The position numbers and the translations under genes are program-made. Source: Candidatus Woesearchaeota archaeon (GTDB lineage: Archaea; Nanobdellota; Nanobdellia; Woesearchaeales; UBA11576). From it: DNA of 32,000 nt. Shown piece by piece: positions 8,376 to 29,139 of the stretch; the first letter of the stretch is position 1, and each line of letters begins with the position of its first letter. The notes under the pieces are model-generated. The model was given only the letters and a program-made list of their open reading frames with translations. It did no database searches and was not told the DNA's origin. The stretch is taken from positions 72,456-104,455 of the forward strand of contig JABGYH010000001.1 of assembly GCA_018675335.1 (NCBI GenBank), in the 5' to 3' direction.

Positions 8376-8404
8376 CTACCTCCAAATTCTAAGAACTGAT
8401 TAAT

Positions 8405-9432: not shown

Positions 9433-9440
9433 TTTATAAA
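9433..9440 (+). promoter_or_regulatory. Candidate TATA box (TTTATAAA)
   Basis: TTTATAAA starts 33 nt upstream of the ATG at 9466. Confidence 0.45.
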
Positions 9441-9465
9441 CAAACAAAACACATAAGAGGGTATC

Positions 9466-11010: not shown

Positions 11011-12546
11011 ATGCATGGTGAATTATTATTAGAATTTTTAAGTAATTTTGTTTTAGCAGTTAGACATTTTTTCGGTTTTTTAAGTTCTGTTGAAGGATTA
11101 TGGTTTAAAAATGGAATTGGCCTGGTAATTATTGGCCTGTTTAGTTATATGGTTTTTTTTGAATATAACAAAAATCGAAAAACTGAACTTAAACATTTAC
11201 TCATAGCATTTAGTTTATTTGCATTCCAACATTTAATCACATTCCTATTTTTATTTCTTTATATTTTTGGACATTTCGAAATTGATTTTGTACTATTTCC
11301 TTTATTTAATAGATTGTTAGGATTAATTGCATTTTTTTTAACAGGAATTGCATTCATTTATCCAATCATTAAAGAACTAAAAGAAAAAACAAACAAATTC
11401 ATAAAAAACAAAGTTATTTTGGTAAGTAGCATTTCAATCATTTTTATTTTATTTACGGCATCCTCATTAGATTTACTAGGGGTCGGGTTTACCAATTTTT
11501 TTACTAGAACTATTTTTGTTTGTGTGGACATAGTAATATTAGGTTATTTTGCATATTTCACACTAATTTATTCTTCTAAACATACATTTAACAGAAATAG
11601 CATATCTCTCGCATTTATTTGTTTTCTTATAGCTCCTTTATTTGAATACATACAAATTATTTTTTTTAATGGATATAATCCTAAACTTCTCGTGGCAACA
11701 ACTCCCTTCCCCTTTGTCGGAATTGTTCTTTTATCTTTAGCAGTTTATACTAAACTTGTTAACAAAGCATATTTGATTAACAAAATTAAATTATCAAATC
11801 AAAAACTAGAGTACGAAAAAAAAGTAAGTAAAATGAAAGATGAATTTGTATCAGTAGTATCTCACGAACTTCGAACTCCCCTAACATCCATGAAATTGTA
11901 TTCCTCCCTCATGGAAAGTGGAAAATTTGGTAGAATGAATAAAAAACAAAAAGATGCAATTGGAATTATTAAAAATGAAAATGATCGCTTAGCCAAATTG
12001 ATTAATGATATTCTAGATTTATCAAAAATGGAAGCTAATCAATCAAAACTGGATATTTCTAAGTTTGATTTGTTTGACATAGTGGATGATGGACTTTATA
12101 CAACTCTTGTTAAAAAGAAAAAAATTAAATTTGAAAATAATGTTCCTAAAAACTTTTTTGTAAATGCTGACCAAGATAAAATCAAACAAGTGTTCATAAA
12201 TTTATTTAGCAATTCAATTAAATTTACTCCAAAATATGGGAGCATAATAATTGATGCTAGAAAATTACAAAATAACAAACAATGGCAATTTATCATTTCA
12301 GATAATGGTGCTGGAATGAATAAAGAAAAATTAAATAAAATTTTTGATAAATTTTCTCAATTAAATAATCACATGACTCGAAAAGCAGGAGGATTTGGTT
12401 TAGGCCTTGCAATTGTGAAACAAATAGTGGATCTTCATCAAGGCACAATCCAAGTTGAATCAGATATTGATAAAGGAAGTTGTTTCATATTATCATTTCC
12501 CACAAAAATAAAAAGAAAAAAAGAAAAAATAAAAAGGAAAAAATAA
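11011..12546 (+). CDS. Sensor histidine kinase with polytopic membrane N-terminal domain
   Basis: About 260 aa of TM helices are followed by H-box VSHELRTPL (HisKA), N-box NLFSNSIKF, G1 DNGAGM and G2 GGFGLGLAIV (HATPase_c). The tail is Lys-rich. Confidence 0.9.
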   Translation: MHGELLLEFLSNFVLAVRHFFGFLSSVEGLWFKNGIGLVIIGLFSYMVFFEYNKNRKTELKHLLIAFSLFAFQHLITFLFLFLYIFGHFEIDFVLFPLFNRLLGLIAFFLTGIAFIYPIIKELKEKTNKFIKNKVILVSSISIIFILFTASSLDLLGVGFTNFFTRTIFVCVDIVILGYFAYFTLIYSSKHTFNRNSISLAFICFLIAPLFEYIQIIFFNGYNPKLLVATTPFPFVGIVLLSLAVYTKLVNKAYLINKIKLSNQKLEYEKKVSKMKDEFVSVVSHELRTPLTSMKLYSSLMESGKFGRMNKKQKDAIGIIKNENDRLAKLINDILDLSKMEANQSKLDISKFDLFDIVDDGLYTTLVKKKKIKFENNVPKNFFVNADQDKIKQVFINLFSNSIKFTPKYGSIIIDARKLQNNKQWQFIISDNGAGMNKEKLNKIFDKFSQLNNHMTRKAGGFGLGLAIVKQIVDLHQGTIQVESDIDKGSCFILSFPTKIKRKKEKIKRKK

Positions 12547-13334: not shown

Positions 13335-14075
13335 ATGAAAGACTTTAAAGAAAAATTAAAATTTCTTGGACTCACAAGCAACGAAACAGATGTATACATA
13401 GCACTACTCAAAAATTCAAAAGCAACCGGAGCATTAATCAAAAGATCAACCAACATCTCAAACTCAAGAGTATATTCATCAATAGACACACTAATAGGAA
13501 AAGGATTAGTAACCTATGAAAAAGTCTCAACAGGAAGATTATTCAGCGCAGTAAATCCCGAAATGTTAAATCAATTAGTTGAAGATAGAAAAAAAGAAAT
13601 TGAAACACTAGTCCCCCAACTTAAAGAACTACAAAATCAAAAACACTCAACCACAAAAACAGAAGTATATGAAGGATTAAATGGATTCAACACTGCACTA
13701 ACCAAATTTCTAGAATGCAAAAATAAAAGTCAAATCGACATCATCGCTTTCCCAAATATTGCATACAAAGGACAAGATTTAATAGATATTCTTCGCAGAA
13801 TAAATAACAAATTAATTCTAAAAAAAATGAAAATAAGAGTTCTTGCAGATCACGATAGCCCAATAAAAAACATGAAACATTACCAAAAAAATACAACCAC
13901 CAAATACATGCCCCCCGGTTATGTTAGCCCTTGCGCAATAGACATTTGCGAAGACAAAATATGCATCTTCATTTGGGGGGACAAACCTTATGCATTTTTT
14001 ATCCAAAACCAAGAAGTTGCAGATGGTTTTAAAAGCTACTTCAATTTCCTATGGAGCATAGCCCAATCCCCATAA
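13335..14075 (+). CDS. TrmB-family transcriptional regulator
   Basis: The N-terminal winged-HTH LGLTSNETDVYIALLKNSKATGALIKRSTNISNSRVYSSIDTLIGKGLVTYEK is followed by a coiled linker and a C-terminal effector-like domain, as in TrmB regulators. Confidence 0.8.
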   Translation: MKDFKEKLKFLGLTSNETDVYIALLKNSKATGALIKRSTNISNSRVYSSIDTLIGKGLVTYEKVSTGRLFSAVNPEMLNQLVEDRKKEIETLVPQLKELQNQKHSTTKTEVYEGLNGFNTALTKFLECKNKSQIDIIAFPNIAYKGQDLIDILRRINNKLILKKMKIRVLADHDSPIKNMKHYQKNTTTKYMPPGYVSPCAIDICEDKICIFIWGDKPYAFFIQNQEVADGFKSYFNFLWSIAQSP

Positions 14076-14178
14076 TTCAAACAAAAAAAAGATTAAAACA
14101 TCCATCAAACCCAAATATTTAAATATGAAATCTGAAAAATTTGGTTGATATTAACCACAATAATTCATTAAAAACATT

Positions 14179-14250
14179 GCCTTGGTGGCTTAGTCGTATA
14201 GCGCGCGCTTGGTAAGCGCGAGGTCGTGGGTTCAACTCCCACCCGAGGCT
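14179..14250 (+). tRNA. tRNA-Thr(GGU)
   Basis: 72 nt. Acceptor GCCTTGG/CCGAGGC, anticodon stem CGCGC/GCGCG, loop TTGGTAA, T arm GTGGG-TTCAACT-CCCAC, U73. A T6 tract follows. Confidence 0.85.
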
Positions 14251-14481
14251 TTCATTTTTTATTTATATTAGTTTAAGACAACCATAACTCAAAAAAATTT
14301 ATAACAAAAAAAGTTTATAAAATTTAATCTTAAAATAAAAAATACAAACCTAAAATCAATCCACAATTAACCAACAATAAACAGTTTTTAAATTAAATCT
14401 AAAAACCAATTAATAAATATTTAGTCAATAACTAGCACAATACACGCATTTATTAATACCCTTAAAATTCACATATTAACT

Positions 14482-14554
14482 GCCTCCGTGGCTTAGTGGC
14501 TATAGCGGCTGCCTAGTAAGCAGCAGGTCCCGAGTTCAAGTCTCGGCGGAGGCT
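14482..14554 (+). tRNA. tRNA-Thr with anticodon AGU (A at wobble position 34)
   Basis: 73 nt. Acceptor GCCTCCG/CGGAGGC, D stem GCTT/TAGC, a perfect 5-bp anticodon stem GCTGC/GCAGC, loop CTAGTAA (AGT at 14515-17), T arm CCGAG-TTCAAGT-CTCGG, U73. I found no alternative register that gives a paired anticodon stem. Confidence 0.8.
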
Positions 14555-14789
14555 TTTATTATTAACCATTACAAATTTCTCTTTTTTATTAATATAAATC
14601 TAAAATCAAATTAAACCAAAACTCATTCTAAATAAAACACAAACACCAAATTTAAATCAAAAAACTCACTTGACCGCATATTTAATCCAAATTCACCACA
14701 ACCCTGTAACCACTTTATCATACTCACAATATCGAAATGTTTAAATATTTGTTATTTCTCCAAACACCATAACAAAATTTATTTTTATA

Positions 14790-14808
14790 AATTGAATATA
14801 ATTCAATT
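14790..14808. promoter_or_regulatory. 19-bp palindrome AATTGAAT-ATA-ATTCAATT between a TATA-like box and the first gene of the surface cluster (candidate operator)
   Basis: It has perfect 8-bp inverted arms with a 3-nt spacer. It sits directly after TTTTTATAA (14782-14790) and 20 nt before the ATG at 14828. An AGGGGGA Shine-Dalgarno-like element follows at 14814-14820. Confidence 0.35.
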
Positions 14809-14827
14809 ATTCTTAGGGGGATAAAAT

Positions 14828-16549
14828 ATGGCTGAAACATTAGAAAAAAAATTACTTTTTGTTGGAGGAAGATTTGTAGATCAAGCTCCAGAAAATTTAC
14901 CAATTCCTGCAGATGCAGTTCCAGAAGAGTTAGCTTCGCAATTTGCATGGTTCAAAGAAACCTATGGCAATCAAGCAGAAATTCACTATTTTAATGATAG
15001 CACAACACTTGCAACAGCAATGGGAAACCTTCCAAAAAAATCCGAATTACTAGGAATAGTTACAGAAGCAAATTTTGAAGGAGTAAAAACCCCCCTATTA
15101 TTAGATCCAGATAAAAAATATGAATGGGGAAATGACGCAAAAGAAGGAATAGTTTTAATGAAAAGACTAACCCAAGTAGCAACTTTTAAAGCAGTAGTTT
15201 CAGCATATAATCATAGCGATGAATTAGTAGCAGATCTAAATACCCCTGCAAAAAAAGATGCAGCAGAAGTTACTGATCCAAATCTTAGAACATCACATCT
15301 AGATATCAAAACTACTGAATCTAATAAAATTGCAACTGCATTCGGAAATTATCATGGACTTGAAATCAAATTTCCAGAAGTAAAAGAACCAAAAGTAGAT
15401 CCAGTAAAAGAACCAAAAGTAGAGCCTGCAAAAGAAGCAGAACCAATAGATTTAGAAATACAAGAACCCGCTCCAGTTGCAGTTCTAATACCAGAACCAA
15501 TTCGCTCAGATGTTCCACAACACAAAGGATCAACATTAAAAACAGTTTTATGGACTGCAGGAGTTATTACTGCTCTAGGCTTAACAGGCGCAGGATTTGG
15601 ACTGCATTATTTAAGTTCTGGAAATGTTTCTGAGTATCAAAGAAATTTAAGTGCAGAAATAGGAAAAGCAACAAAAAAAGGATTAATATCCCCTTACCAA
15701 GCAGAATTAATCGCAACAACACATATGACTCCTGACTTTTTTGAAAGATTTAGCAATTCAAGTTTAACTCAAAGATTAACAACTGCAAGAGCACTTATTA
15801 GCGATTATGATGTAGCAAATAATTCTTTTGAAGATTTATTAACAAGTAAAGGTCTGAAAGGCTCACCAGATAACTTCAATTTATCACTCCTTCAGTCAAC
15901 AGAATTAGCTTCATACATCAATGCAAGAGGAGTTTGTCAAATGCTAGGAATTGAAACTGGAGAATGTGATGCAGATCTTGAATCACTTGCAAAACGTCAA
16001 CCAATCCAACTTGCACAAGCAAAAGAACGAGTTTATCAAGATATTGCTCGAGGTCTTGCAGATATGGATCCATCCAAAATAGCAAATGTGGATTTAGTAT
16101 TATCTCAATTAATTACAACATTGCAAGCTGCAGATTCACAATATGCACCATTTAAAGATGGTTTAGTTCCTGGAGCAAACAGAAATGAAAATATAAGAAA
16201 TATTGTTGATGCCTACACTCAACACATGTTAGGCGCACAACAATGGGACCAACATCAAAAAACTCCCACTCCAGAATCAGTTGATTGGAAAACAAAATAT
16301 GATACACTAACTGCAACAAACGGACAACTTCAATTAGATTATGAAGGTGCTCAAGCAACTATTAAAACACAAGCGACAACAATCGCAGGAAAAGATGCAA
16401 CCATAGCTGGATTACAACAACCTACAAGCAGACATAGACGATCTAAACCAACTACAACAACAAAAAAAGTCACGCCAAAAAAAATCGTGACCGAACCACC
16501 AGTTATGAACGTTCCAAGTAGATTCGGTACAGACTCATATACATACTAA
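14828..16549 (+). CDS. Bitopic membrane protein: N-terminal soluble domain, Pro/Glu/Lys-rich spacer, single TM helix, ~310-aa C-terminal domain
   Basis: 573 aa with no N-terminal signal peptide. The spacer EVKEPKVDPVKEPKVEPAKEAEPIDLEIQEPAPVAVLIPEP maps to nt ~15371-15505. The TM helix VLWTAGVITALGLTGAGFGLHYL maps to nt ~15545-15613. The C-terminal part is Q/A/T-rich with a coiled-coil-like end and a basic tail. I recognise no family. Confidence 0.8.
   Translation: MAETLEKKLLFVGGRFVDQAPENLPIPADAVPEELASQFAWFKETYGNQAEIHYFNDSTTLATAMGNLPKKSELLGIVTEANFEGVKTPLLLDPDKKYEWGNDAKEGIVLMKRLTQVATFKAVVSAYNHSDELVADLNTPAKKDAAEVTDPNLRTSHLDIKTTESNKIATAFGNYHGLEIKFPEVKEPKVDPVKEPKVEPAKEAEPIDLEIQEPAPVAVLIPEPIRSDVPQHKGSTLKTVLWTAGVITALGLTGAGFGLHYLSSGNVSEYQRNLSAEIGKATKKGLISPYQAELIATTHMTPDFFERFSNSSLTQRLTTARALISDYDVANNSFEDLLTSKGLKGSPDNFNLSLLQSTELASYINARGVCQMLGIETGECDADLESLAKRQPIQLAQAKERVYQDIARGLADMDPSKIANVDLVLSQLITTLQAADSQYAPFKDGLVPGANRNENIRNIVDAYTQHMLGAQQWDQHQKTPTPESVDWKTKYDTLTATNGQLQLDYEGAQATIKTQATTIAGKDATIAGLQQPTSRHRRSKPTTTTKKVTPKKIVTEPPVMNVPSRFGTDSYTY
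15380..15423 (+). repeat. Perfect 20-nt tandem duplication with 24-nt period (encodes VKEPKVDP / VKEPKVEP)
   Basis: GTAAAAGAACCAAAAGTAGA occurs at 15380-15399 and again at 15404-15423. Confidence 0.9.
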
Positions 16550-16557
16550 GAGTTAAA

Positions 16558-16570
16558 TTTTTTATTTTTT
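16558..16570 (+). terminator. Oligo-T tracts (T6-A-T6) after the 573-aa gene
   Basis: TTTTTTATTTTTT starts 9 nt after the stop codon at 16547-16549. Confidence 0.4.
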
Positions 16571-16890
16571 CTTAAATTTTTATTCATCAATTTTCTAAAC
16601 ATCAATCCCACACATAATTCATACATAATTATCCAACACAGGATAATAACAATTTTATAACAAATATAATCAAATTCTAACTTAACCACCAAATCAACCC
16701 ACAAAAGCCAATTAAAATTTACTACGAACCAATACTAAAAAGCAGAATCTTTATATATTAGTACACCCAAAGAGTAGTTAAGAGTTTTAGGGGGTTTTGA
16801 AAACTCAAATATTGATTTTAAACTAAAAAAGAGCTGAATCTTCGTTATTTTAACGTAAATATCTATTATAATAGTTTAAAGAGTATAAAA

Positions 16891-19221
16891 ATGGCAAAAA
16901 ATCTAGATCTATCCAATAATACTGCTCAAAGTCGATCTTCATCCGCAGGAGCTGCGGCTATAGGAAGTATCGCAACATTAGCAACATTAGCTATTATGTC
17001 TGGAACACCTAGTTCTGCAAATGCACAAGAAATAGATTATGATGTTAAAGCACAAACAATAGCAGCTCAATCAGACTGTAAAATAACCAACGCAGGCCAA
17101 GATTTAACACCAACTGAAGTTGGTACAATTTCAACAATTCTAAGTGAAAACAATGATGTTCCTGATTTTGATATTTCAACACTTTGCTCAATTGCACAAA
17201 TAAAACCAGTAAGTCTAGAATGCAATGATGGATACTCAATAAATGAAGGAATTGATCATCTTTTCACAAGCCATCCCGTATTCAAATCAGCAGATAAAAG
17301 CCAAACAGGCACTGCAAAAAAAATTCTATACGATTATTTGACCACGCAAGGACACAGATCTTTTGATCAAAAACTCTTAACAAAAACAAAATTAAAAATT
17401 CCAGATGAAGTTGTAATTGATATGTACAGAGCAGCAATTGGACTTCCTTCATTAGATTCCAAAAAACAAACTGAATTAGAACAAAAACAATTAGAATTAA
17501 AACAACAACAAGTTGAAAAAAGATATTCTTCATTGGAATTAAAACTGGGCACTCTTGACACTCAAGCAGGAAAATTAATGCAAACCTGGACAGAACCATC
17601 AAATATTGCACAATACATTCAAACTGAATTAGAAGGAATTCATTCAGAAGAATTTGGTGGAAAAGAAAAACCTAAAGAAGAACAATTAATTAGTGCTAAA
17701 CAACAAGCGCTAACAACAAAACTCACTACTTATTCTCAAACATATGATGATCATCAAGCCAAACTACCTCGAGGAATTGCAAGACTTGGTGGCACTATAT
17801 CAACTCCATTAGAAGGAGATGGCCCAAATGCGTATGGTGGAAGTTTAGGTTTAAAATTAGGTAATGAATCATTTGATCTAAGCGCATATGGATTTATGTT
17901 AAAACCGTTCCCAACTCAAGTAACAACTGATTTTATTGGAGGTGGACTTCTTGAATTAAAATTATCTGATCGACATAGAATTTTATTAATGTTATCTGGA
18001 AATCAAAGTGGCTTATCAACATCAAGAACAACATCTCTTGATACTCAACCATTAATTATTAATGGTGAAACTTCACAAACAACAGGACATGAAAGTTTAG
18101 AAGATTCACTTAATTTATCTGAATTTTATATGACCTTAGGAGGAGAATTTACTGCTTGGAATCATTTAATTGCAGGAATTTATTTTGGTTTCGGAAATTT
18201 AGAAACAAGTCAAGATAATGATACTTCAATCGCTCAAACAGATACAACTCAATCTGAAATTAGTGAAGCAAACGGAACTGTTTTAGTATCAACTGATATT
18301 GGAACTCAAACAGATCTTACAACTACAACAAGAACTGATGTTGACACTCAACTATATTTTTTAGAAGGCCTCCTAGGTTATACTGGAAAGGGTCAAATTT
18401 ATAGTTTATTTGGAAATTTTGCGCTAGCCGAAACTACTGTTTCTTCATTAACGCAAATTGCAGGACTTAGTCAAACACAAGGGGTTGTTAGAACACAAAT
18501 TAATGACGAATTAATTGATACTCAAGACATTACTTCAAGCAGTCCATTAGATGATGCTGGAACTCCAGTAAGAATTTCTGATTCTCAAACAAGTTTTGCT
18601 ATTGGTGCAAGAATTTTAGTTCCATATGATGATGGATTATTTAGTCTTAAATTAAGTTATGATAACGGGACAAAAGGACTTCCATTAAGCGGTTATGCAT
18701 TATGGGCTCAGAATTTCAGCGGAATAACTCCTTTGTTAAGTGTTAATAAAACAGGAAATACTTATTCAGGACAATTCATGCTTTTTACAGGCATCGATGA
18801 TTCTAGATTTGAAAAAATTTCTCAAACTTATGACGGATTATTAGGTTTAGAACAAATTGCATTAGATCCAACTCTAGTCAGACAATATAGTCAAGACTCA
18901 TTAAAATTATTGACAACACAACTTAATGGATTATTTTTAGGCGGAAGATTTACTGCAGCAACAACTCCTAATGACCGCGCATTACTTACAGGTTCTGATG
19001 ACACAGATACAGAATTTGGAGGTTTTGGTTGGGCAGGATTTAATCATCCAGAATATGCAGGAGGCGCATTAATGTATGATCATACAGGCCAAAGACTTGG
19101 ACTACTACTAAACATAAATGCAATTCCGCACGTTCCATTACAATTAGAAGTTGGAACTGGAAATTTATCCGAGAAAAAAAAATCATTTGATGCAAGTCTA
19201 AACTTGGGTTACACATTTTAA
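16891..19221 (+). CDS. Secreted protein: signal peptide, Cys-containing N-domain, coiled coil, and a ~480-aa C-terminal beta-barrel-like domain ending in an OMP-type beta-signal
   Basis: 776 aa. The signal peptide has h-region AAAIGSIATLATLAIMSG with ANA|QE (predicted cleavage after residue 45). The coiled coil KKQTELEQKQLELKQQQVEKRYSSLELKLG maps to nt ~17461-17585. From residue ~294 there are many amphipathic Gly/aromatic-rich beta-hairpin-like segments. The C-terminus is FDASLNLGYTF-stop. Confidence 0.85.
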   Translation: MAKNLDLSNNTAQSRSSSAGAAAIGSIATLATLAIMSGTPSSANAQEIDYDVKAQTIAAQSDCKITNAGQDLTPTEVGTISTILSENNDVPDFDISTLCSIAQIKPVSLECNDGYSINEGIDHLFTSHPVFKSADKSQTGTAKKILYDYLTTQGHRSFDQKLLTKTKLKIPDEVVIDMYRAAIGLPSLDSKKQTELEQKQLELKQQQVEKRYSSLELKLGTLDTQAGKLMQTWTEPSNIAQYIQTELEGIHSEEFGGKEKPKEEQLISAKQQALTTKLTTYSQTYDDHQAKLPRGIARLGGTISTPLEGDGPNAYGGSLGLKLGNESFDLSAYGFMLKPFPTQVTTDFIGGGLLELKLSDRHRILLMLSGNQSGLSTSRTTSLDTQPLIINGETSQTTGHESLEDSLNLSEFYMTLGGEFTAWNHLIAGIYFGFGNLETSQDNDTSIAQTDTTQSEISEANGTVLVSTDIGTQTDLTTTTRTDVDTQLYFLEGLLGYTGKGQIYSLFGNFALAETTVSSLTQIAGLSQTQGVVRTQINDELIDTQDITSSSPLDDAGTPVRISDSQTSFAIGARILVPYDDGLFSLKLSYDNGTKGLPLSGYALWAQNFSGITPLLSVNKTGNTYSGQFMLFTGIDDSRFEKISQTYDGLLGLEQIALDPTLVRQYSQDSLKLLTTQLNGLFLGGRFTAATTPNDRALLTGSDDTDTEFGGFGWAGFNHPEYAGGALMYDHTGQRLGLLLNINAIPHVPLQLEVGTGNLSEKKKSFDASLNLGYTF

Positions 19222-19296
19222 ATTTAAATTTTTTATTTAATCTTTTAAAAAAAAATTAATCTCAAACTTAAAAATCATAAATTCAAAGGTTATAAA

Positions 19297-22200
19297 ATGA
19301 ATTCAAATAAAAAATCTCAAAAACTCCACTTTGTGGCAACGCATCTCATCATCTTACTTTTTGTAGTAAGTATGATTCCAGCTAATGTTTCTGGATTGCA
19401 AGATCTTCCACCTATTTGCAACATAATGCCAAATAGTAACGAAGTTATAACAACTGCAGTAATCACAATTACTGCAACAGATGTTTTAGCAAATGCAGGA
19501 ATTAATACTATGCGAATTTATGAAGATGGAAATTTATTAAATACTAAATCTTGCTATGGCGTATCAACTTGTGTTTTTACAAAAACAATTGTGCACACTA
19601 GTTCAAGTAATCATGCTTATTATGGAGTTGCGATTGATAACTCAGGTCAAAGCACAACTTCTGAAACTATCCAAATCAGTTTTGAAGGAATTAATAATCC
19701 ACCAATAATTACTAGTTATTCACCAGAAAATGTAATAGTAGAATTACCCGAACAAGAATCACAAAAATTTACAATAACTGCATCAGATCAAGAAAATGAT
19801 CCTATAACTTTTGAATGGTATAAAGGCCCATCAAAAATTAATGGTGCAAATACAAATTCATACACAATTTCTGAAAATGTTGACGATAATGAATCATTTA
19901 TTTTAGTTGCAAGAGCATTAGATAATAATGGAGGAGTTACAGTTAAAGGTTGGGTAGTTACAATAATTGATAGCGCACCAACAATTAACTTAAACACATA
20001 TCCTGTAATTGATGAAGGATTTACTGCAATTTTAGAGGCTAATGCCAATGCTTATGATGGAATTAGTTCGGTTTTTTGGGATTATGGAGATCAAACTTCC
20101 GAATTTGGAAATACTCAATCACATCACAGTTATGATGATCAAGGAGTTTATACAATTTCTGCAACTGTTGCTGATTTAGATGGTGATGAAATTACTGATA
20201 CTTTTGATCTAACTGTATTAGATGTTCAACCAACAATCATCTCATTAACTTGTCCTATTTCAATTACTGAAGGAGAAACTGCTGAATTTAGTGTTCAAGC
20301 AATTTCAGGATCAGATAAAGATTTAATTTCAAATTATGTTTGGGACTTTGGAGATAATACTCAAACTCAAGAAGGTCAAAATTTAAATGAAGCAACTCAC
20401 GAATTTACGAGCAGCAGTGCAACTACTGTCTCAGTATTAGTTCATGATGAAGATGGTTTTGTTGAAGATAATTGTTTTGTTGTTATTGGAGATACAGATC
20501 CTCAAGCAAGTTTTTCTTATCAACCAAATAACCCATTAGAACATGCAACCGTTGAATTTACTGATATGTCAATTGAAGGTTATGATCCAATTACTAATTG
20601 GGATTGGAATTTTGGTGATGGAGATATTTCTCAAGAACAAAATCCTACTCACGAATTTACTGATGGAACTTGGACTATTAGTTTAACTGTTACTGATAGC
20701 GATAATAGTCAAGATACAATTCAACAATTAATTACTGTTTCAAATAATCCTCCAACAGTTGCATTTAATTCTGATGTGACTGAAGGTGTTGAAGAATTAA
20801 CAGTTGAATTTGAATGCGAAATTACTGACGGAAATATCCCTTATGATTATGTTATATCATATGGTGATGGAAATTCAGATAATGGTCAAACAGATGAACA
20901 AACAATTCAAACAATTCACACTTATGAAGAAGATGGAGATTATCAAGCTACATGTACTACAACAGATATGGATGACGATACTGATTCAGATATAGTTGAC
21001 ATTACTGTTATTACCAATTCACCAATTGTTTCTCTTAATGCAAATCCTAATGAAGGAGAAGAAGAATTAGTTGTAGACTTTACTTGTGATATTAGCGAAG
21101 GTAACGCACCTTTTAGTTATGTCATGACCTATGGGGATACTACAGAAGAAGTTGGTCAAACAGAGGAATCAGTTATTGAATTTACTCACAATTATTTTGG
21201 TGGCGAATACACAGCTACTTGTACTATTACAGATAAAGATGGAGATACCAATTCAGATTTAGCAGATATTAGTGTACAAAATAATGCTCCAGAAGTTTCT
21301 CTTAATGTAACTCCTAATCAAGGTATTGAACCTTTAACAGTTGAATATACTTGTGACGGAATTGGCGGAAATGGAGAATTATCTTATTTAATTTTATTCG
21401 ACGATAATCTTGCTCAATCAGTTGAAAATATTGGAAGTTATACTTATAATCAAGAAGGAATTTATGCGCTAACTTGCGCAGTAACTGATATTGATGGAGA
21501 CACAACACAAAAAAATTTTGATGTTGATGTAACTGATAGTGTTCCAACAAATGTAGATATTAATTATGATCTTGAATTCATTGAAGAAATGGATTCAGTT
21601 TTATTTTCAGGAACTGCTGATGCATACGATCTTCCATTATCTTGGAGTTGGGATTTTAATGAGGATGGCATAGAAGACAGCGCAGAACAAAATCCAGAAT
21701 ATGTTTTTACTCAAAGTGGAATTTTTATAGTTAATTTGACAGTTACTGATTTTGATGGTAGCAAGACTTCAACAATTGAAATAATTGAAGTTTTAGATAA
21801 TGTTCCAACAATAGCGTTAAGTGTTGAACCAACAACTGGACTTGAACCAATAACAACTCAAATCAGTTGTGAAACTGAAGTTGGTGCAGGAAATACACCA
21901 TACACTTATAATATAAAATTTGGAACAACTGAAGACCCTCAAGAAATAGTTACAGATGAAATACAAGTTAATTTAGAACACACATATGATAATGGAAGTT
22001 TTAATTTAAGTTGTACAATAACTGATGTTGACGGAGATTTTGTTACAACTTCAACTCAAGTTAATATTACTGATTCAACTCCAACCGATCTTTCAATAAA
22101 TTTTAATCCAGAAAATCCTGTTGAAGGAGAAGAAGTTAATTTTATTGGAAATGCTAATGCTTATGATCTACCACTAATTTGGAGTTGGGATTTTAATGAA

Positions 22201-25200
22201 GATGGTGTAGAAGATAGCACTGAACAAAATCCCGAATTTACAGTTACACATAATGATTCTTACAATGTTTCGTTAACTGTTTTTGATAATGATGGAAGTA
22301 AAGAAGTAATTTATACTCAAATTGAAATTTCAAATAATATTCCTGGAGCAAATCTTATTTCAGATGTTGTAGAAGGAATTGAACCTTTAACTGTTGAATT
22401 TACTTGTGAACCTACTCAAGATACAACCTCCCCATCACTAAATTATAATTTAAATTTTGGAGATGGAAATTTTGAACAAATTAATAGCGAGTTAGATTCA
22501 GAAATATTCACGCATGTTTACAATACAACTAATGATCTCGCAGGATCAGATTTCCAAGAGTTTAATGCCTTTTGTAACATTACGGATTTTGATGGAGACA
22601 CTAGTACTTCAGAAAATATTTCAATTAATGTTTCAGATGTAGATCCTATTGCCGATTTTAGTTTTAATCCGGAAATTCCTGCAGAACTTGTTTTAGTACA
22701 ATTTACTGATGAATCAATTACTGTTGATCAAATCACCTCATGGAATTGGAATATTAATAATACCAATAATAACAATACAAGTTTAGATTTTAATTCAACA
22801 CAAAATGCGAGTTACCAATTTACCGAGGGAACTTATGAAATAACTTTAACAATCACTGAACCTGATGGAGATCAAGATGATATCACAAAAACTATTGAAG
22901 TTACAGATGATGCCCCAATAGTAACATTAATTGCAGATCCAAACTCAGGTATCGAACCAGTAAATGTTTCTTTTATTTGCAATAGTATTGGAGGAAATGA
23001 TCCAATTAACTATTTATTAAATTTCGGACTCAATGAATTTAATTCAACTTCAAATACTTTTTTAAGTATTGGATCACCAATTGAAACCAATCAAATTTAC
23101 GAAGAAGGAACATACGAAATTAATTGTTCTGCAACTGATTTTGATGGAGATAAAGCAACCGATATAGTAAGTATCGAAGTGCAAGATTCAATTCCAATAA
23201 TTAATTTTACTTTTGAACCTGAAGTTATTAATTCATATCAAGAAGTAATTTTCACACCAACAGTAGAAGGTTATGATTCTCCATTTACTTATGAATGGAG
23301 TTTTGAAAACTACCCTGCACTAACAATTACTGACGAAATTATGAAATTTGTTTTTAATCATGGAGATATTTATCCACTAACACTTACTGTTACTGATAGT
23401 GATGGAAGTGAAAAAACAATAAAAAAAGATATAATTGTTCCAATTGATGAAACTGCACCTGAAATTACTAATATAACAATAACAGAACTTACTAATCAAA
23501 GTGTTATCATTTCTTGGACTACTGATGAAATTGCAGCAAATGTAATTAATTATGGAATTTTAAATATTGATGAAAATACTATTGATGTAGAACTTAGTCC
23601 TGAATTAAACAATTCTGTTAAATTAATTAATTTAACTGCAGAAACAAATTATAATTTTACAATTGAAGCGTGTAACAGCGATAATATTTGTTCAGAATCA
23701 GATCAACTTAATTTTACAACCCTAGATACTCTGCCAGTTTTAATGAGTTTAGAAGTAACTCCTCTCGAAGGTTATGAACCCTTAACAGTAAACGTTAATT
23801 GCACAATCAAAAATGCAATCGGGCCAATAACATATGATATTGAATATGGTGATAACTCCGATTTGTTTAATACAACTAACACTCAAGGATTAATTGAAGA
23901 ATTTAGCATAATAAAAACTCATGAATATAATTTATCTGAAGATTTAAACAGCGAAGTATTCGATTTAACTTGTTCCATTTCAGATGCGAATGATTATAGC
24001 AATTCAAAAGAGGCAAATATAATTGTTAATGATTCAATCCCAACTAATCTTAATTTTAATTGGTCGGTTTATGCTATGGATTTACTAAATGAACCAGTAC
24101 CTCAAAATGCTTACGTGTATTTTAGTTCAGAATTTAACTCATATGATTCTCCCTCAACAGTTATGTGGGATTTTAACAATGATGGGATCATAGATGATTT
24201 TGGATTAGAGGAAGTTTATGTGTTTGATGCTCCAGGAACATACACAGTTAACATGACTGTTTCAGATGCAGACTTAGATGAAACATCAATCACTAAAGAA
24301 ATTGAAGTTTATGAAACAAATCTAACTCCTCCAAACGTTAACTCAGTTAATGCATTACCTTCAAATTTAATTTATGGCAGTGATATAAACACACTTATCA
24401 TATCAAATGTTAATGATGATAATTATGCAATTGATAATGTACGATATGAAATTACTAATTTAAATTTAGGCAATCAAATGAATACTCTTTTTGCAAGTCC
24501 AATTCAAGAAGAGACTTGCACATTCACAGTAGAAAATATTAGCCAAGAATTTACATTAAACGAAGATGAAATCATCCAATTTGAATTCGAGGGCCAAACA
24601 TATGATTTAGAAGTTGAATCTATTTGGAATAACTTTTGTTACATTGAAATCGGATATTATGATAATAATAATGATTGGATTTGGGATGATCAAGACGTAA
24701 AAAAAGACGAATCAGAACTAATTAACGGAATCAATATTAGTGTATCTGAAGTATATGATCCTTGGGGCCCAAGAGGATTTTGTTTATTTGAATCAGAATA
24801 TCAAGGGGAAACCAAAACTGGTTGGATTGATAGTTATGGTCAAGGTTTAGAAATTAACGGATTTGACTTTGATGTTGATTGGGTTGATGACGTTGAAAAA
24901 ACATGTGATTTTGAAATAGATCAAGGAAATGCAGAAGCTTATTTTGAAGAAATGGAAATTGGAGAATTAATCAATTTTAATGGCATAAAAATGACTTTAC
25001 TTGATGTTAAAGGTGCAAGCGAAAATAGATGGGCTGCACTTTATCAACCGATTACAAGCGGAATTTATGATGTTCAAGTTATTGCAAATAATGTAGTTAA
25101 CTCAGTTAATGATTCCGAACATACTGAATTCATAGTTGAAGGAATAGGTGATGAAATTTGCACCATAGTAAGTCAAAATGAGGGAGCTCAACTTATTAAC

Positions 25201-27369
25201 TTAGATGGAATAGATTATGAAATTAATTTATTGTATGTTAATGAACAAAAAGTTAAATTTCAAATCAATGGAGAAATTACTCCACTCTTAAACACAAATC
25301 AATATTTCACTTTAAACGATGGAAATGAAATTTATGCAACAACCACTAATTATCAACCAACTGTCTTTGGAGATCATGAAGCAATTGTTTGTTTAACAGA
25401 TATTTCTCACAGTAACGAAGGAGAAGGATTTCCAGTTTGTAATGGTGAAATAAATAACCTAATAGCAGAAGGTGAAGAAAAAAACTATTTAATGAATGGA
25501 GAAATCATCTCAGTTACTCTTGATGAAGTTACAGAATTTCAAGCAAACTTTAATGTAAATGGAGAACAAACAGAATTATTAACTACTCAAGAAACATTTA
25601 CTTTATCAAATAATGGAGAAATAACTCCGTTAGAAATTTTATACCAACCATTTATTGGTGGAATTAAATCTTCTGAATTTTGTTTAGATTATAATATTGA
25701 ACCAAGCAATCAACAGTTAATGAACTTGCTTGAAACTTCTTTAGAGGATAGTAGTTTAGGACAAGCAATTAACAACAATTCATATTTATGTTTTGAAGTT
25801 TTTAGTGAAGAATCAGGACTGCACTCTTATAACGCAGAATTAGAAAATGAAAATAATAATTGGAATATTAACTTAGATCAAGAATTTTGTGATGGTAATG
25901 AATCTGAAGATTATAATTTCCGTTACCAAAGTATTGATGAATTTCAAGAATCTATGAATAATTTTACTTGTAATTTCTTAAAACAAGATTTCAATAATGC
26001 ATATTATTTATTGCCCTCAAAATATGCAGAAAATGGCAACTTCATATTTGAAGAAGAACAATGTTCAGTTTATGGAATGGTTTGGAATGCTTGTTTCACA
26101 AATTTTGAAAAAATAATTTATGACATTCCTAAATGTGAAGGATTAGGTCCAGAAGAAATTCCACCGCCAGTAGCAACTCTTACAACTGACATAGTATTTG
26201 GCGAAGCACCACTTGATGTTACGTTTAATTGTAGTGTTGAAAATGGCACTGCGCCGTTTAATTATACATTAAATTTTGGGGATGGAAATTTTACTGAATT
26301 AAATAATTCAGTAGAAACATATTTTGAAGCAACACATAATTTTAATGAATCTGGAAATTACACAGGAGTTTGCACAATTACTGACGCAAATGAAGATAAT
26401 AGTGAATCATCTACTGAAGTTAAAGTTTTTGCAATTGGAGAACTTCCTGAAACATTAGAATTTGATTTAATAGCATTACCAAATTCAGGTTTAAATCCAT
26501 TACAAGTTAACTTTTTTGCAAATGTAACTAATGGTACCGCCCCTTATTCGTTTAAATGGGATTTCAGTTATGATAATCAAGATATCTCTGTTGAGTCAAC
26601 AAATCAACAACAATTACATATTTACAATCTACCAGGAACTTATACTGCATTCCTAAGTGTTACTGATGATTCAGGTCAAACAAGTAACCTAACAAAAGAG
26701 ATTATAGTATCATCTTTAGAAAGAGATGTAGGGGTTATTAATTTGAATTATCCTAAATTTGATTCAACAACCTATCTTAATGATACAGTTGAAATTGACG
26801 CGACAATAATTAATAATGGCAATTCTGAAGAAGAAATAGAAATTGAATTTTTAATCAACAATGTGGTTGAAGAATCAACATTAATAATCCTTGCAGGAAA
26901 TGGCGCAACTAAACAAATTTTATTTAACTTTAGTGCAGGAGAATTAGGTTATCAAAATCTTAAGGTAAGAGTAAAAACTCTTCCAGGTGAAACTAATTTT
27001 GCTAATCAACAATTATCTTACAATGCATTAGTTTGGAGTGTTGATGACATTATTAGTCAAGCAACAAGAGAATTATTTTTTAATGAAACTTCAATTAATA
27101 ATGGAGAATCATTTACAGTTCATCTGCCACTTCAAAATGATTGGAATGCAGAGGATTATGCATTTAAAGATTTAATGGCTGAGTTAGTTTTTGATAATGA
27201 AAGTTTCACGTCAAATCCCGATGCAATCCAATTAGTTGACTTTAATGAAGGAGAATTTAAAGTTCTTACTTGGAATTTAGAATCAAATACGACAGGCACA
27301 TTTGATATTGGCGCAAATTTAGGTAATAATGAAATCATTATTGCTTCCAAGCAAGTGGAGGTGATCTAA
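19297..27369 (+). CDS. Giant secreted surface protein (2690 aa): about 17 PKD-like domains, one Fn3, a Cys-rich non-PKD central insert and a C-terminal CARDB-like domain; no membrane anchor
   Basis: The signal peptide is HLIILLFVVSMIPANVSG|LQ. PKD hallmarks (W-D-F-G-D-G type motifs: WDYGD, WDFGDN, WNFGDG, WSWDFNEDG, NFGDGN) recur every ~90 aa. An Fn3-like domain lies at nt 23455-23727 (ITNITITELTNQSVIISWTTDE...YNFTIEACN). A CARDB-like domain lies at nt ~26717-27040 (DVGVINLNYPKF...VEIDATIINNGNSEEEIEIEF). Many N-x-S/T sequons are present. Confidence 0.9.
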   Translation: MNSNKKSQKLHFVATHLIILLFVVSMIPANVSGLQDLPPICNIMPNSNEVITTAVITITATDVLANAGINTMRIYEDGNLLNTKSCYGVSTCVFTKTIVHTSSSNHAYYGVAIDNSGQSTTSETIQISFEGINNPPIITSYSPENVIVELPEQESQKFTITASDQENDPITFEWYKGPSKINGANTNSYTISENVDDNESFILVARALDNNGGVTVKGWVVTIIDSAPTINLNTYPVIDEGFTAILEANANAYDGISSVFWDYGDQTSEFGNTQSHHSYDDQGVYTISATVADLDGDEITDTFDLTVLDVQPTIISLTCPISITEGETAEFSVQAISGSDKDLISNYVWDFGDNTQTQEGQNLNEATHEFTSSSATTVSVLVHDEDGFVEDNCFVVIGDTDPQASFSYQPNNPLEHATVEFTDMSIEGYDPITNWDWNFGDGDISQEQNPTHEFTDGTWTISLTVTDSDNSQDTIQQLITVSNNPPTVAFNSDVTEGVEELTVEFECEITDGNIPYDYVISYGDGNSDNGQTDEQTIQTIHTYEEDGDYQATCTTTDMDDDTDSDIVDITVITNSPIVSLNANPNEGEEELVVDFTCDISEGNAPFSYVMTYGDTTEEVGQTEESVIEFTHNYFGGEYTATCTITDKDGDTNSDLADISVQNNAPEVSLNVTPNQGIEPLTVEYTCDGIGGNGELSYLILFDDNLAQSVENIGSYTYNQEGIYALTCAVTDIDGDTTQKNFDVDVTDSVPTNVDINYDLEFIEEMDSVLFSGTADAYDLPLSWSWDFNEDGIEDSAEQNPEYVFTQSGIFIVNLTVTDFDGSKTSTIEIIEVLDNVPTIALSVEPTTGLEPITTQISCETEVGAGNTPYTYNIKFGTTEDPQEIVTDEIQVNLEHTYDNGSFNLSCTITDVDGDFVTTSTQVNITDSTPTDLSINFNPENPVEGEEVNFIGNANAYDLPLIWSWDFNEDGVEDSTEQNPEFTVTHNDSYNVSLTVFDNDGSKEVIYTQIEISNNIPGANLISDVVEGIEPLTVEFTCEPTQDTTSPSLNYNLNFGDGNFEQINSELDSEIFTHVYNTTNDLAGSDFQEFNAFCNITDFDGDTSTSENISINVSDVDPIADFSFNPEIPAELVLVQFTDESITVDQITSWNWNINNTNNNNTSLDFNSTQNASYQFTEGTYEITLTITEPDGDQDDITKTIEVTDDAPIVTLIADPNSGIEPVNVSFICNSIGGNDPINYLLNFGLNEFNSTSNTFLSIGSPIETNQIYEEGTYEINCSATDFDGDKATDIVSIEVQDSIPIINFTFEPEVINSYQEVIFTPTVEGYDSPFTYEWSFENYPALTITDEIMKFVFNHGDIYPLTLTVTDSDGSEKTIKKDIIVPIDETAPEITNITITELTNQSVIISWTTDEIAANVINYGILNIDENTIDVELSPELNNSVKLINLTAETNYNFTIEACNSDNICSESDQLNFTTLDTLPVLMSLEVTPLEGYEPLTVNVNCTIKNAIGPITYDIEYGDNSDLFNTTNTQGLIEEFSIIKTHEYNLSEDLNSEVFDLTCSISDANDYSNSKEANIIVNDSIPTNLNFNWSVYAMDLLNEPVPQNAYVYFSSEFNSYDSPSTVMWDFNNDGIIDDFGLEEVYVFDAPGTYTVNMTVSDADLDETSITKEIEVYETNLTPPNVNSVNALPSNLIYGSDINTLIISNVNDDNYAIDNVRYEITNLNLGNQMNTLFASPIQEETCTFTVENISQEFTLNEDEIIQFEFEGQTYDLEVESIWNNFCYIEIGYYDNNNDWIWDDQDVKKDESELINGINISVSEVYDPWGPRGFCLFESEYQGETKTGWIDSYGQGLEINGFDFDVDWVDDVEKTCDFEIDQGNAEAYFEEMEIGELINFNGIKMTLLDVKGASENRWAALYQPITSGIYDVQVIANNVVNSVNDSEHTEFIVEGIGDEICTIVSQNEGAQLINLDGIDYEINLLYVNEQKVKFQINGEITPLLNTNQYFTLNDGNEIYATTTNYQPTVFGDHEAIVCLTDISHSNEGEGFPVCNGEINNLIAEGEEKNYLMNGEIISVTLDEVTEFQANFNVNGEQTELLTTQETFTLSNNGEITPLEILYQPFIGGIKSSEFCLDYNIEPSNQQLMNLLETSLEDSSLGQAINNNSYLCFEVFSEESGLHSYNAELENENNNWNINLDQEFCDGNESEDYNFRYQSIDEFQESMNNFTCNFLKQDFNNAYYLLPSKYAENGNFIFEEEQCSVYGMVWNACFTNFEKIIYDIPKCEGLGPEEIPPPVATLTTDIVFGEAPLDVTFNCSVENGTAPFNYTLNFGDGNFTELNNSVETYFEATHNFNESGNYTGVCTITDANEDNSESSTEVKVFAIGELPETLEFDLIALPNSGLNPLQVNFFANVTNGTAPYSFKWDFSYDNQDISVESTNQQQLHIYNLPGTYTAFLSVTDDSGQTSNLTKEIIVSSLERDVGVINLNYPKFDSTTYLNDTVEIDATIINNGNSEEEIEIEFLINNVVEESTLIILAGNGATKQILFNFSAGELGYQNLKVRVKTLPGETNFANQQLSYNALVWSVDDIISQATRELFFNETSINNGESFTVHLPLQNDWNAEDYAFKDLMAELVFDNESFTSNPDAIQLVDFNEGEFKVLTWNLESNTTGTFDIGANLGNNEIIIASKQVEVI
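19699..24312 (+). repeat. Coding tandem array of ~270-nt PKD/Ig-like domain repeats (interrupted by one Fn3 unit)
   Basis: Each unit ends in a short linker of the form V-x-[DN]-x-x-P. Two alternating subtypes are visible: a Cys-pair type (E-P-L-T-V-E-F-T-C ... C-x-I-T-D-x-D-G-D) and a W-x-W-D-F type. A second short array lies at 26158-26716. Confidence 0.85.
27357..27366 (+). promoter_or_regulatory. Perfect 10-nt Shine-Dalgarno GGAGGTGATC inside the last codons of the giant gene
   Basis: It is the exact complement of the conserved 16S rRNA 3' end GAUCACCUCC. It is followed by TAA (27367-69) and then directly by the ATG at 27370. Confidence 0.75.
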
Positions 27370-29139
27370 ATGAATACAATTAAAAATCACAAAATGGATG
27401 ATATTAAAAATCACAAAATAAAATCAAGTATTGGAAAAAAAATAAATAAAGCATTCATGTTTTGCATGTTATTTTGTATCATACTTATTTCAGCCTCAGG
27501 AATTGCATTTGGTGCTGAATGTAGTGGAACTTTAAGTGCACCTACTAAGTCATTATATGTGGGCGAACAATTCGATATTAATTTCTTCAATGCAGAAGCA
27601 ACAAGTAATGGAATGGATGTTAATTTAACTCTTTCACCAAATTTAGCAACACTTGATACAAATCCTCAAGCAGGAATTCCTTTTACAACTAATTCATGGA
27701 CTGTTAATAGTTCAGCAACTGGAAATTTACTTAGTAATGTAAAAATAATTGGTTTATGTGAAAAAAATTTTACTATTAAAATTATTAATCAAGTAGAAGA
27801 TCCAAATATTGAAATTAATTTAAGCGAAATTCCAGAGTTAACTCTTGGAACCAGTCATGAATTTAATGTAACTCTTAATAATACTGGACTTGGCAATGCT
27901 ACTGAAATTAGTGGTATTTTATCAACTGCTACAAACAGCGCAATTATCCCTGATTCATTTAGTAATTTTAATTTAGAACCTAATACTTCAAAAACAGATT
28001 CGTATATGATAACTCCAACTCAATGTGGAACTGATACATTAACTATTTTAGTTAATAACTACAAAAATGAAAATAGCGAATTAATGGTCCCAGTTTTAAA
28101 AGAAGCAACATACTCAGTTACCGGATCAGATATTGCATTTACAACAATCAGTGCAGAAAACAATTTCAAAGAAGGTGAAAATTTTGAAGTAAATTTCACC
28201 ATTGAAAATTTAAAAAATATTAATGCATCAGACATAATTGTTAATTTTTACAAAAATGAATCATTACTAGGTTCAAAATCAATTAATTTGTTAGTTGCAA
28301 ATAATCAATCAGAACACACAATTAGTTTATCAGGAGATAGTTTTCATGCAGGAAATCACACATTAAAAGCAAGCATAGAATCATTAAATGAGTGTAGTTC
28401 AAAGAATAATGAAATTGAATTTGAAGTTACAAACATTGTTGGTGGAACTTGTTCAGATAAAATTAAAAACGGTGATGAAACCGGAACTGACTGTGGCGGT
28501 AGTTGTAGTAGTTCATGTACGCCTGATGAACCAACTATCCCTTCTGGAAATGGTGGTAGTCCAAGTGGTTCAGGGAATACAATTAAAATTGAATTATCAG
28601 AAGATCTTCCCAGTGTAACAGTTATTGTTTACAAAAGCGATACTGTAAAACTTATTTTTGAAGACAAACCATATTATCTTAATTTTGATAAATTATATGC
28701 TAACAAAGGAAGAATTACACTTAGACTTCCAGGACCAGATACAGTAAAAATGTTGGATGAAGATCAAACTTTAAATGTAGATATTAATAAAAATGGAACT
28801 GAAGATATTGGAATAACCATGGAAGAAATTAATACAGGTAAAGCAAATATTAAATTCGAATTATTATCTGCAAAAAAAATAACTCCGAACATAATTCCTA
28901 TGACTTCAAAAAAAGTTGATTCAGAAGTAAATACTACAGAGTCAGATAAACCTGACGAATCACAATTAAAGGAAGCGAAAACAGATGTTAAAGAATCTTT
29001 TTCCGAAGGAATTTTGAGTTTTATTGAAACTTTTTCAGTTAGATCAAAAGCACCTGTTTTTGGAGGAATTGCTTTATCATTAGCAATTATTGTGTTAGGA
29101 CTAGGAATTTATTTTGTTATTAGTAGAAAAAAAGAATAA
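27370..29139 (+). CDS. Surface protein with signal peptide, CARDB-like repeats, a 4-Cys module and a C-terminal TM anchor
   Basis: 589 aa. The signal peptide is FMFCMLFCIILISASGIAFGA|EC. CARDB-like segments include NLSEIPELTLGTSHEFNVTLNNTGLGNA and TISAENNFKEGENFEVNFTIENL. The 4-Cys module C-SDKIKNGDETGTD-C-GGS-C-SSS-C maps to nt 28450-28518. The C-terminal helix PVFGGIALSLAIIVLGLGIYFVI plus RKKE maps to nt ~29054-29136. I counted about 15 N-x-S/T sequons by eye. Confidence 0.85.
   Translation: MNTIKNHKMDDIKNHKIKSSIGKKINKAFMFCMLFCIILISASGIAFGAECSGTLSAPTKSLYVGEQFDINFFNAEATSNGMDVNLTLSPNLATLDTNPQAGIPFTTNSWTVNSSATGNLLSNVKIIGLCEKNFTIKIINQVEDPNIEINLSEIPELTLGTSHEFNVTLNNTGLGNATEISGILSTATNSAIIPDSFSNFNLEPNTSKTDSYMITPTQCGTDTLTILVNNYKNENSELMVPVLKEATYSVTGSDIAFTTISAENNFKEGENFEVNFTIENLKNINASDIIVNFYKNESLLGSKSINLLVANNQSEHTISLSGDSFHAGNHTLKASIESLNECSSKNNEIEFEVTNIVGGTCSDKIKNGDETGTDCGGSCSSSCTPDEPTIPSGNGGSPSGSGNTIKIELSEDLPSVTVIVYKSDTVKLIFEDKPYYLNFDKLYANKGRITLRLPGPDTVKMLDEDQTLNVDINKNGTEDIGITMEEINTGKANIKFELLSAKKITPNIIPMTSKKVDSEVNTTESDKPDESQLKEAKTDVKESFSEGILSFIETFSVRSKAPVFGGIALSLAIIVLGLGIYFVISRKKE

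Follow-up and report, generated by a model that had tools for sequence, protein, structure and literature searches.

A lineage-specific exported protein of a Woesearchaeota archaeon with a conserved outer-membrane-protein-like C-terminus and a candidate β-barrel domain

The DNA analysed here is a stretch of 32,000 nucleotides, referred to below as the window, from a Candidatus Woesearchaeota archaeon (GenBank assembly GCA_018675335.1, contig JABGYH010000001.1, positions 72,456 to 104,455, forward strand); unless stated otherwise, coordinates are those of the window. On its plus strand lies a complete open reading frame (ORF), 16891..19221, which encodes a protein of 776 residues listed at NCBI as HN587_00475, a hypothetical protein of a Ca. 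Woesearchaeota archaeon on a 609-kb contig. A preliminary description of this DNA had seen in the protein a β-barrel of the bacterial outer-membrane type; the amphipathic segments that it quoted and the ending FDASLNLGYTF, directly followed by the stop codon, are found exactly in the translated ORF. We find that the gene is native to Woesearchaeota and that its product ends in a signature resembling that of bacterial outer-membrane proteins (OMPs), which is real, rare by chance and conserved. The product would be a lineage-specific, Sec-exported envelope protein composed of three parts, a head, a linker of some 100 residues made of helices and an all-β domain of 483 residues without internal repeats, for which we tentatively propose a barrel fold.

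Organization of the 776-residue protein

Pattern scans of genome and metagenome contigs led to a full-length ortholog of 759 residues, encoded at positions 4316-6595 of a contig (L003) from the Ca. Woesearchaeota metagenome-assembled genome (MAG) SI073_bin58; an identical metagenome contig (L004) was recovered in the same scans. The tblastn alignment gives 33.7% identity over 763 residues (E 1e-127), and the description that follows is based on the comparison of the two proteins.

The terminal strand, SFDASLNLGYTF (19183..19218, +), is similar to a β-signal. Numbered backwards from the C-terminus, positions 1, 3, 5, 7, 9 and 11 are occupied by F, Y, L, L, A and F, and the five intervening residues (T, G, N, S, D) are all non-hydrophobic. 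The ortholog ends in ...VHIGANATYEF, with F, Y, A, A, I and V at the alternate positions, so that both proteins have six out of six alternate hydrophobic residues ending in Phe and a fully polar opposite face. The terminal Phe is invariant in this pair of proteins of 34% overall identity, which answers the question, raised in the preliminary description, of whether homologs keep the C-terminal aromatic residue. From the amino-acid composition of the window alone, such a terminal pattern is expected in 4e-5 to 6e-4 of cases per protein. A calibration set was assembled from eight regions of the Escherichia coli K-12 genome (14 OMPs, 18 periplasmic or β-sandwich proteins and 159 other ORFs), in which a terminal aromatic residue combined with at least five of six alternate hydrophobics occurs in 7/14 OMPs versus 1/177 of the other ORFs. 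The canonical β-signal reads polar-x-G-x-x-aromatic/hydrophobic-x-aromatic/hydrophobic, with Phe or Trp usually as the last residue. The terminus had been called a classic example of it, which is accurate as far as the terminal Phe, the Tyr at position -2 and the hydrophobic residues alternating up to position -10 are concerned, but not for position -5, where both orthologs have Asn instead of Gly.

The all-β domain that ends in this strand (residues 294-776, 17770..19218, +) comprises about 20 hand-assigned amphipathic strands. Its contents of Gly, Thr and Leu are 12%, 11.8% and 14%, respectively, and it lacks both Cys and transmembrane (TM) helices. The orthologs are 36% identical over this domain, with many Gly and aromatic positions kept. 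Five clear hairpins with tight turns (NE, DRH, GG, TGKG and PYDDG) can be recognized, each with a hydrophobic face of approximately 8-11 residues beside the turn that is kept in both orthologs and often capped by aromatic residues. The first two (residues 314-337 and 347-370, turns NE and DRH, 17830..18000, +) have the faces YGLLL/YLVLI, FLAGM/FLGGF and FGGLLL/NGGIFV in the pair of orthologs. They are followed by loop or arm A, which is polar and rich in Thr and Ser (residues 371-408, 18001..18114, +) and has an indel of 16 residues relative to the ortholog. The hairpin with turn GG (residues 409-435, 18115..18195, +) presents the hydrophobic face FANLAIFF and leads to a loop or arm B rich in Thr, Gln and Asp (residues 436-486, 18196..18348, +; 24.5% identity to the ortholog). 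In the hairpin with turn TGKG (residues 487-513, 18349..18429, +) Y489 and Y497 cap the hydrophobic face at both ends; it precedes the polar loop or arm C (residues 514-565, 18430..18585, +; 19.6% identity). The best-conserved β block, 48.5% identical, consists of the hairpin 566-591 with turn PYDDG and the strands 599-633 (18586..18789, +), with the faces TFIAIVY/LWVLLIY and GFLLY/GFALY. A predicted helical insert comes next (residues 634-679, 18790..18927, +; 35% identity), for which AlphaFold2 places low-confidence helices at about 637-646 and 668-681. The last 100 residues or so (18928..19218, +; 41% identity) contain the invariant motif LNINAIPHV and are the only part of the protein matched in protein databases.

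Away from the turns, the strands continue into polar segments 39-52 residues long with abundant Thr, Ser, Gln and Asp; these segments are the most divergent parts of the domain (20-25% identity versus 33-48% in the hairpin blocks). Since short and long connections alternate, all long loops would be located on one side of the sheet. When the hairpins were compared with one another, no internal repeat reached significance (28 comparisons, best z 2.7), and this speaks against a solenoid or a propeller.

At the other end of the protein, residues 1-45 (16891..17025, +) correspond to a predicted Sec-type signal peptide, as judged by inspection, with a long polar n-region, an h-region at about 18-38 and the sequence ANA/QE at the end. 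Residues 16-41 contain the only hydrophobic 19-mer above a Kyte-Doolittle value of 1.2 in the whole protein, and no TM helix or other anchor is found downstream of the signal peptide. The ortholog has an equivalent h-region followed by ALA/ED, and both sequences agree with the 45-residue signal peptide of the preliminary description. The following domain (residues 46-190, 17026..17460, +), delimited from the alignment and from an AlphaFold2 single-sequence model, was modelled with mixed helices and strands, the mean pLDDT (the per-residue confidence score of AlphaFold2) of its 10-residue blocks being 31-77. The cysteines noticed earlier in this part of the protein are at positions 63, 99 and 111; C63 and C99 are kept in the ortholog and C111 is not. 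This head would thus be a small, disulfide-containing α/β domain. The linker (residues 191-293, 17461..17769, +) is bordered by the conserved junction motifs FGGxxKPxEEQLIS and KxPRGxxRLGG, and modelled as helices at about 190-231, 236-255 and 261-290 with pLDDT values of 56-68. Heptad analysis does not confirm the long coiled coil proposed for this region: a heptad pattern is limited to one window of 28 residues (199-226) and absent from the ortholog, in which the linker is 14 residues shorter, a difference equal in length to two heptads. The proposed coiled coil is at best a short helical linker. Residues 46-293 have no match in Pfam even at E≤10, SLH and POTRA domains included.

Native origin and gene order of the locus

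A word-indexed search of 5.8 billion protein clusters returned the 776-residue protein itself as the sole match, and an exhaustive phmmer search of 1.84 billion representatives (of approximately 15 billion proteins) returned a single one, a protein of 97 residues (P0002) matching residues 682-769. No bacterial relative was found among these 1.84 billion representatives, nor any relative in collections of viral contigs, plasmids and phages. P0002 is encoded on a contig of 2,969 nt (L002; ENA scaffold HAWL17-1...scaffold_11235), shortly ahead of a homolog of the giant gene that also follows the target gene. Bases 418-2936 of this contig are 99.9% identical to the contig carrying the full-length ortholog (positions 6230-8747). 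The first 417 nt are unrelated to it, so that the shorter contig either has a chimeric end or is a variant with a rearrangement. Because the two contigs match save for this unrelated 5' end and the longer one has the intact ortholog, we rejected the idea that P0002 is the remnant of a truncated gene; judging from these alignments it is a fragment of the Woesearchaeota ortholog that arose in assembly or gene calling. The 759-residue ortholog itself is absent from the collection of 15 billion proteins, and the known family has two members, both from Woesearchaeota.

Both genomes show the full block of genes in one order: Vut_1 (-), TrmB (+), a membrane protein of 573/713 residues, the 776/759-residue protein, a giant protein of 2,690/2,597 residues with PKD repeats and a CARDB protein of 589/552 residues. 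Over this interval (window 13335-29139 versus 806-16131 of the ortholog's contig) the two MAGs share 83% identity in TrmB, versus 26-44% in the four adjoining envelope genes. This difference, together with the complete synteny, leads us to regard the four genes as a surface module that is inherited vertically and evolves fast.

The first gene of the module (14828..16549, +; 573 residues) encodes a conserved N-terminal domain (LLFVGGRF...), a Pro/Lys-rich linker with the repeat KEPKVDPVKEPKVEPAKEAEP, a weak TM segment, a helical ectodomain and a basic Thr/Lys-rich tail; it has no family match in Pfam. Its ortholog (1910-4051 of the corresponding contig) is, at 713 residues, 140 residues longer and has a clear TM segment at 360-378. 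The giant gene (19297..27369, +; 2,690 residues) starts 75 nt past the target gene and is probably part of the same operon. Its product has a signal peptide and PKD repeats, is very acidic (471 Asp+Glu versus 59 Lys+Arg), contains 37 Cys and gives sub-threshold NCBIfam matches to the pilus protein PamR (RbmA-like) of the candidate phyla radiation (CPR) and to the T1SS-143 repeat. The strongest alignments with its 2,597-residue ortholog cover the first 1,300 residues or so (34.5% identity) and the last 300 or so (44.3%); the copy next to P0002 is 44.4% identical across the first 666 residues, the portion present on that contig. The fourth gene (27370..29139, +; 589 residues) begins at the base right after the stop codon of the giant and encodes a signal peptide, a CARDB domain and a C-terminal TM anchor; it is 37% identical to its ortholog of 552 residues. 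The conserved gene order suggests that the 776-residue protein works with the PKD adhesin and the CARDB protein at the cell surface.

Several observations establish that the target gene belongs to the genome in which it was found. The GC content at third codon positions (GC3) of the gene is 0.126, compared with 0.12-0.15 in the flanking genes, and the same four-gene block was recovered in a separate Logan assembly (SRR3724309). The archaeal context described earlier is supported by an AMP phosphorylase scoring 546 bits against the NCBIfam equivalog TIGR03327 (cutoff 535) and by the TrmB-family regulator, which are accompanied in the window by ordinary metabolic and transport genes. Given this GC3 value, the archaeal-type neighbours and the independent assembly of the locus, to which the synteny of a second MAG is added, a chimeric contig, which the preliminary description had listed among possible refutations, or foreign DNA was rejected. 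Acquisition from a bacterium, one of the explanations offered then, is not supported, there being no bacterial, plasmid or phage relative in the collections searched, a GC3 like that of the neighbours and a conserved chromosomal position. A scan for sigma-70 promoters and terminators around the gene gave no more candidates than shuffled controls.

Some further features of the window may be mentioned. Two tRNA-Thr genes (14179-14250 and 14482-14554, +) with anticodons GGT and AGT lie 230 nt apart upstream of the module; they are distinct from each other, with 53 of 73 aligned columns identical, and the syntenic interval of the second MAG has no tRNA. A tRNA-Thr with A34 is unusual in archaea. 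A response-regulator receiver (10036-10407, -) and a histidine kinase of the HisKA/HATPase type (11011-12546, +) are encoded approximately 600 nt apart in opposite orientations in this archaeon with a small genome, and just upstream of these two-component genes, at 8826-9978, are two uncharacterised ORFs of 170-173 residues with no family matches.

Candidate barrel and competing readings

With some hesitation we put forward an OMP-like barrel of the up-and-down type whose hairpins carry long polar arms and which would serve as the outer platform of the fast-evolving surface module. The β domain, made of Gly-rich hairpins, would form a single large sheet, in the simplest case a barrel of some 16-20 strands, and the hydrophobic faces beside the tight turns have a length that would fit a belt of membrane thickness. 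Such a barrel may sit in a lipid or lipid-like layer beyond the cytoplasmic membrane, either an outer layer of the cell itself or a zone of contact with a host, with the long, fast-evolving arms rich in Thr, Ser, Gln and Asp pointing outward and with the linker and head reaching back to the membrane-anchored products of the four-gene module. There are reports of diderm archaea, among them ARMAN and Altiarchaeum, which are affiliated with DPANN (PMC8871954). A barrel appears the most economical solution because the protein combines an export signal and the lack of any later anchor with putative membrane-thickness belts by the tight turns, variable arms on one side, Gly-rich strands and an aromatic C-terminus. 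The more far-reaching proposition, that the domain is a lipid-embedded OMP-style barrel whose evolution in archaea owed nothing to the bacterial OMP superfamily or to the β-barrel assembly machinery (BAM), we consider doubtful, and somewhat more so than the fold itself.

The Gly content of the strands favours an OMP-like domain. Gly makes up a fraction of 0.16 of the dyad-patterned strands of the target and of 0.14 in those of the ortholog; in the E. coli set this measure discriminates with an area under the curve (AUC) of 0.72, the OMP median being 0.094, the OMP maximum 0.156 and the 90th percentile of non-OMPs 0.111. The target is therefore above the maximum of the E. coli OMPs and the ortholog near the top of their range, and the β-sandwich proteins encoded alongside it, the PKD and CARDB products, have values of 0.01-0.06.

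A series of results weighs against the barrel. AlphaFold2 produced neither a barrel nor a confident alternative fold, be it for residues 294-776 with P0002 as second alignment row (mean pLDDT 28.4) or for the mature protein, residues 46-776 (mean pLDDT 38.4, the C-terminal domain staying below 50 throughout), and Foldseek found nothing in the PDB at E<0.001 with the latter model, which is itself unreliable. The 776-residue protein has no match in Pfam or NCBIfam, and its two halves have none in Pfam even at E≤10; phmmer against the PDB sequences gave nothing relevant, and a two-sequence profile gave zero PDB matches at E≤10. The comparison with OMP families at the profile level, which the preliminary description had proposed as a check, was likewise negative: hhalign with a two-sequence profile of the C-terminal domain, a search of low sensitivity, assigned a probability of at most 0.9% to the 14 E. 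coli OMPs, and the best value among 177 E. coli proteins including these 14, 2.8%, belonged to a non-OMP. According to HHomp, nearly all OMPs are reportedly related to one another. The Pfam-scanned ORFs of the window, to which the 2,690-residue ORF, scanned against NCBIfam only, does not belong, contain no match to Omp85/BamA families, and we know of no outer membrane or Omp85/BAM machinery in Woesearchaeota. To these points are added the Asn at position -5 of the terminal strand, the assignment of the strands by hand and the fact that covariation is unusable because the family has only two members.

The calibration contributes two further reservations. The aromatic content, which is the best single discriminator in the E. 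coli set (AUC 0.90-0.95), is 0.089 in the target, just under the 0.090-0.151 seen in OMPs. The density of dyad-patterned strands, for its part, gave AUC values of 0.60-0.81 overall and of 0.29-0.67, or about 0.5, against β-sandwiches with eight parameter settings, and the 2.1-2.3 strands per 100 residues of the target (depending on the filter) are within the range of every class. As it fails to separate OMPs from β-sandwiches, strand density was rejected as evidence for a barrel, and the amphipathic segments are not evidence in themselves. Of the Gly/aromatic-rich amphipathic segments of the preliminary description, their presence and an OMP-like strand Gly content are retained, but not a discriminating density or an OMP-like aromatic content.

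Nearly as likely as the barrel is a non-membrane, β-rich protein of a surface layer (S-layer) or sheath, in which the hairpins would belong to a soluble sandwich or to lattice contacts, the Thr/Ser stretches would be glycosylated linkers or exposed strands and the terminal Phe would end a buried strand. The signal may in this case remain uncleaved as an N-terminal anchor, for which the h-region, at about 20 residues, has sufficient length, and the head, linker and β domain would make up a stalk and a canopy. The density of amphipathic strands, equal to that of E. coli fimbrial β-sandwich proteins, the aromatic content below that of OMPs, the 10 N-x-S/T sequons and the high Thr/Ser content are in line with such a protein, as is the rapid evolution of the module relative to TrmB, which is usual for surface proteins. 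Moreover, most archaea, imaged DPANN included, have a single membrane and an S-layer, and no structure of a DPANN S-layer protein has been resolved (PMC11329633). On the other hand, isolated hairpins of 27-28 residues amid the long polar stretches are unlike tandem Ig-like domains, the Gly content of the strands is threefold that of the co-encoded PKD/CARDB sandwiches, and the terminal aromatic signature is rare outside OMPs, as seen in the E. coli control. Neither PGF-CTERM nor another C-terminal anchor is present, and no S-layer family of Pfam or NCBIfam is matched.

A secreted pore or anchor for a host membrane, which the adhesin module would release or present where the cells touch and whose hairpins would insert there and open a conduit through which the symbiont takes up metabolites or lipids, is an unlikely explanation. 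It would agree with the position of the gene directly upstream of the giant PKD adhesin, probably in one operon, and with the rapid evolution of the module, which a host interface would lead one to expect; DPANN in culture are ectosymbionts that depend on contact (PMC11329633, PMC11291902). The domain would nevertheless contribute about ten amphipathic hairpins, and no aerolysin, leukocidin or MACPF-type family of Pfam is matched even at E≤10. In known β-pore-forming toxins, each protomer has a soluble fold that supplies one or two amphipathic hairpins.

Finally, a bacterial OMP gene that arrived by horizontal transfer, or a mis-binned or mis-assembled bacterial sequence, has no more in its favour than a terminal strand and a hairpin style like those of bacterial OMPs, and is highly improbable in view of the searches, the GC3, the independent assembly and the archaeal flanking genes described above, as well as of the ortholog at the same position between Vut_1-TrmB and CARDB in another Woesearchaeota MAG.

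Known envelope proteins and implications

One of the closest counterparts in overall design to the putative barrel protein is provided by SlpA/OmpM, the connectors between outer membrane and cell wall of Deinococcus-Thermus, Negativicutes and Cyanobacteria, which are tripartite, with a signal peptide, a head, a helical stalk and a C-terminal outer-membrane barrel that in SlpA has insertions (PMC9388160). The Woesearchaeota protein shows the same order of signal, head, helical linker and C-terminal β domain. It differs from them by the absence of the SLH domain, which is not detected in residues 46-293, and by its linker, which amounts to some 100 residues in three helices with heptads at 199-226 only, in contrast to their central trimeric coiled coil. 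There is no similarity in sequence or profile, the barrel is here a proposed one, and the host is an archaeon without peptidoglycan.

With BAM-dependent OMPs such as porins, FadL and OmpT the protein shares a predicted Sec signal, amphipathic hairpins that are rich in Gly and carry their tight turns on one side and their long, variable loops on the other, and a terminal strand ending in Y-x-F (compare ...GLKYTF in OmpT and ...GIVYQF in OmpF). It is distinguished from them by the lack of any match in Pfam, NCBIfam, the PDB or hhalign, by the Asn at -5 and by an aromatic content just under their range; Omp85/BamA is not known from any archaeon. TpsB proteins of two-partner secretion and the β domains of autotransporters resemble it in combining an N-terminal non-barrel part with a C-terminal β domain and in the location of the gene beside that of a very large adhesin. 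No POTRA, ShlB or Autotransporter match is found here, however, the adhesin has its own signal peptide and there is no sign of a second membrane to be crossed.

Stalked S-layer proteins of archaea (SlaB of Sulfolobales, tetrabrachion) are likewise exported and have a helical stalk and β-rich parts able to span the pseudo-periplasm. Proteins of this type carry a C-terminal TM helix as anchor and Ig-like sandwich domains, whereas the Woesearchaeota protein lacks a C-terminal anchor and has isolated Gly-rich hairpins. More generally, the features of archaeal S-layer glycoproteins were not found: the C-terminus is an amphipathic strand and not a hydrophobic helix, and neither Pfam nor NCBIfam gives an S-layer, PGF-CTERM or Ig-type match. 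The protein is thus a member of an orphan family of two, whose design resembles that of OMPs and of SlpA/OmpM and which showed no homology to either in these searches.

Transmembrane β-barrels count as a hallmark of the outer membranes of bacteria and organelles, and we know of none established in archaea. Should the β domain be a soluble part of a surface layer, the β-signal pattern alone would not be diagnostic outside bacteria, and the protein would become a first candidate for a component of the S-layer in DPANN. If, on the other hand, it is a barrel of independent archaeal origin, this would imply either an unrecognised outer membrane with a tether or porin, or a monomeric barrel placed in a host membrane at the adhesin contact, and would show how barrels can be assembled without BAM. 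The protein would in that event be a concrete candidate with which the repeated evolution of β-barrel membrane proteins can be tested, and it could reveal the make-up of the outermost envelope layer or of the host-contact apparatus in uncultivated Woesearchaeota.

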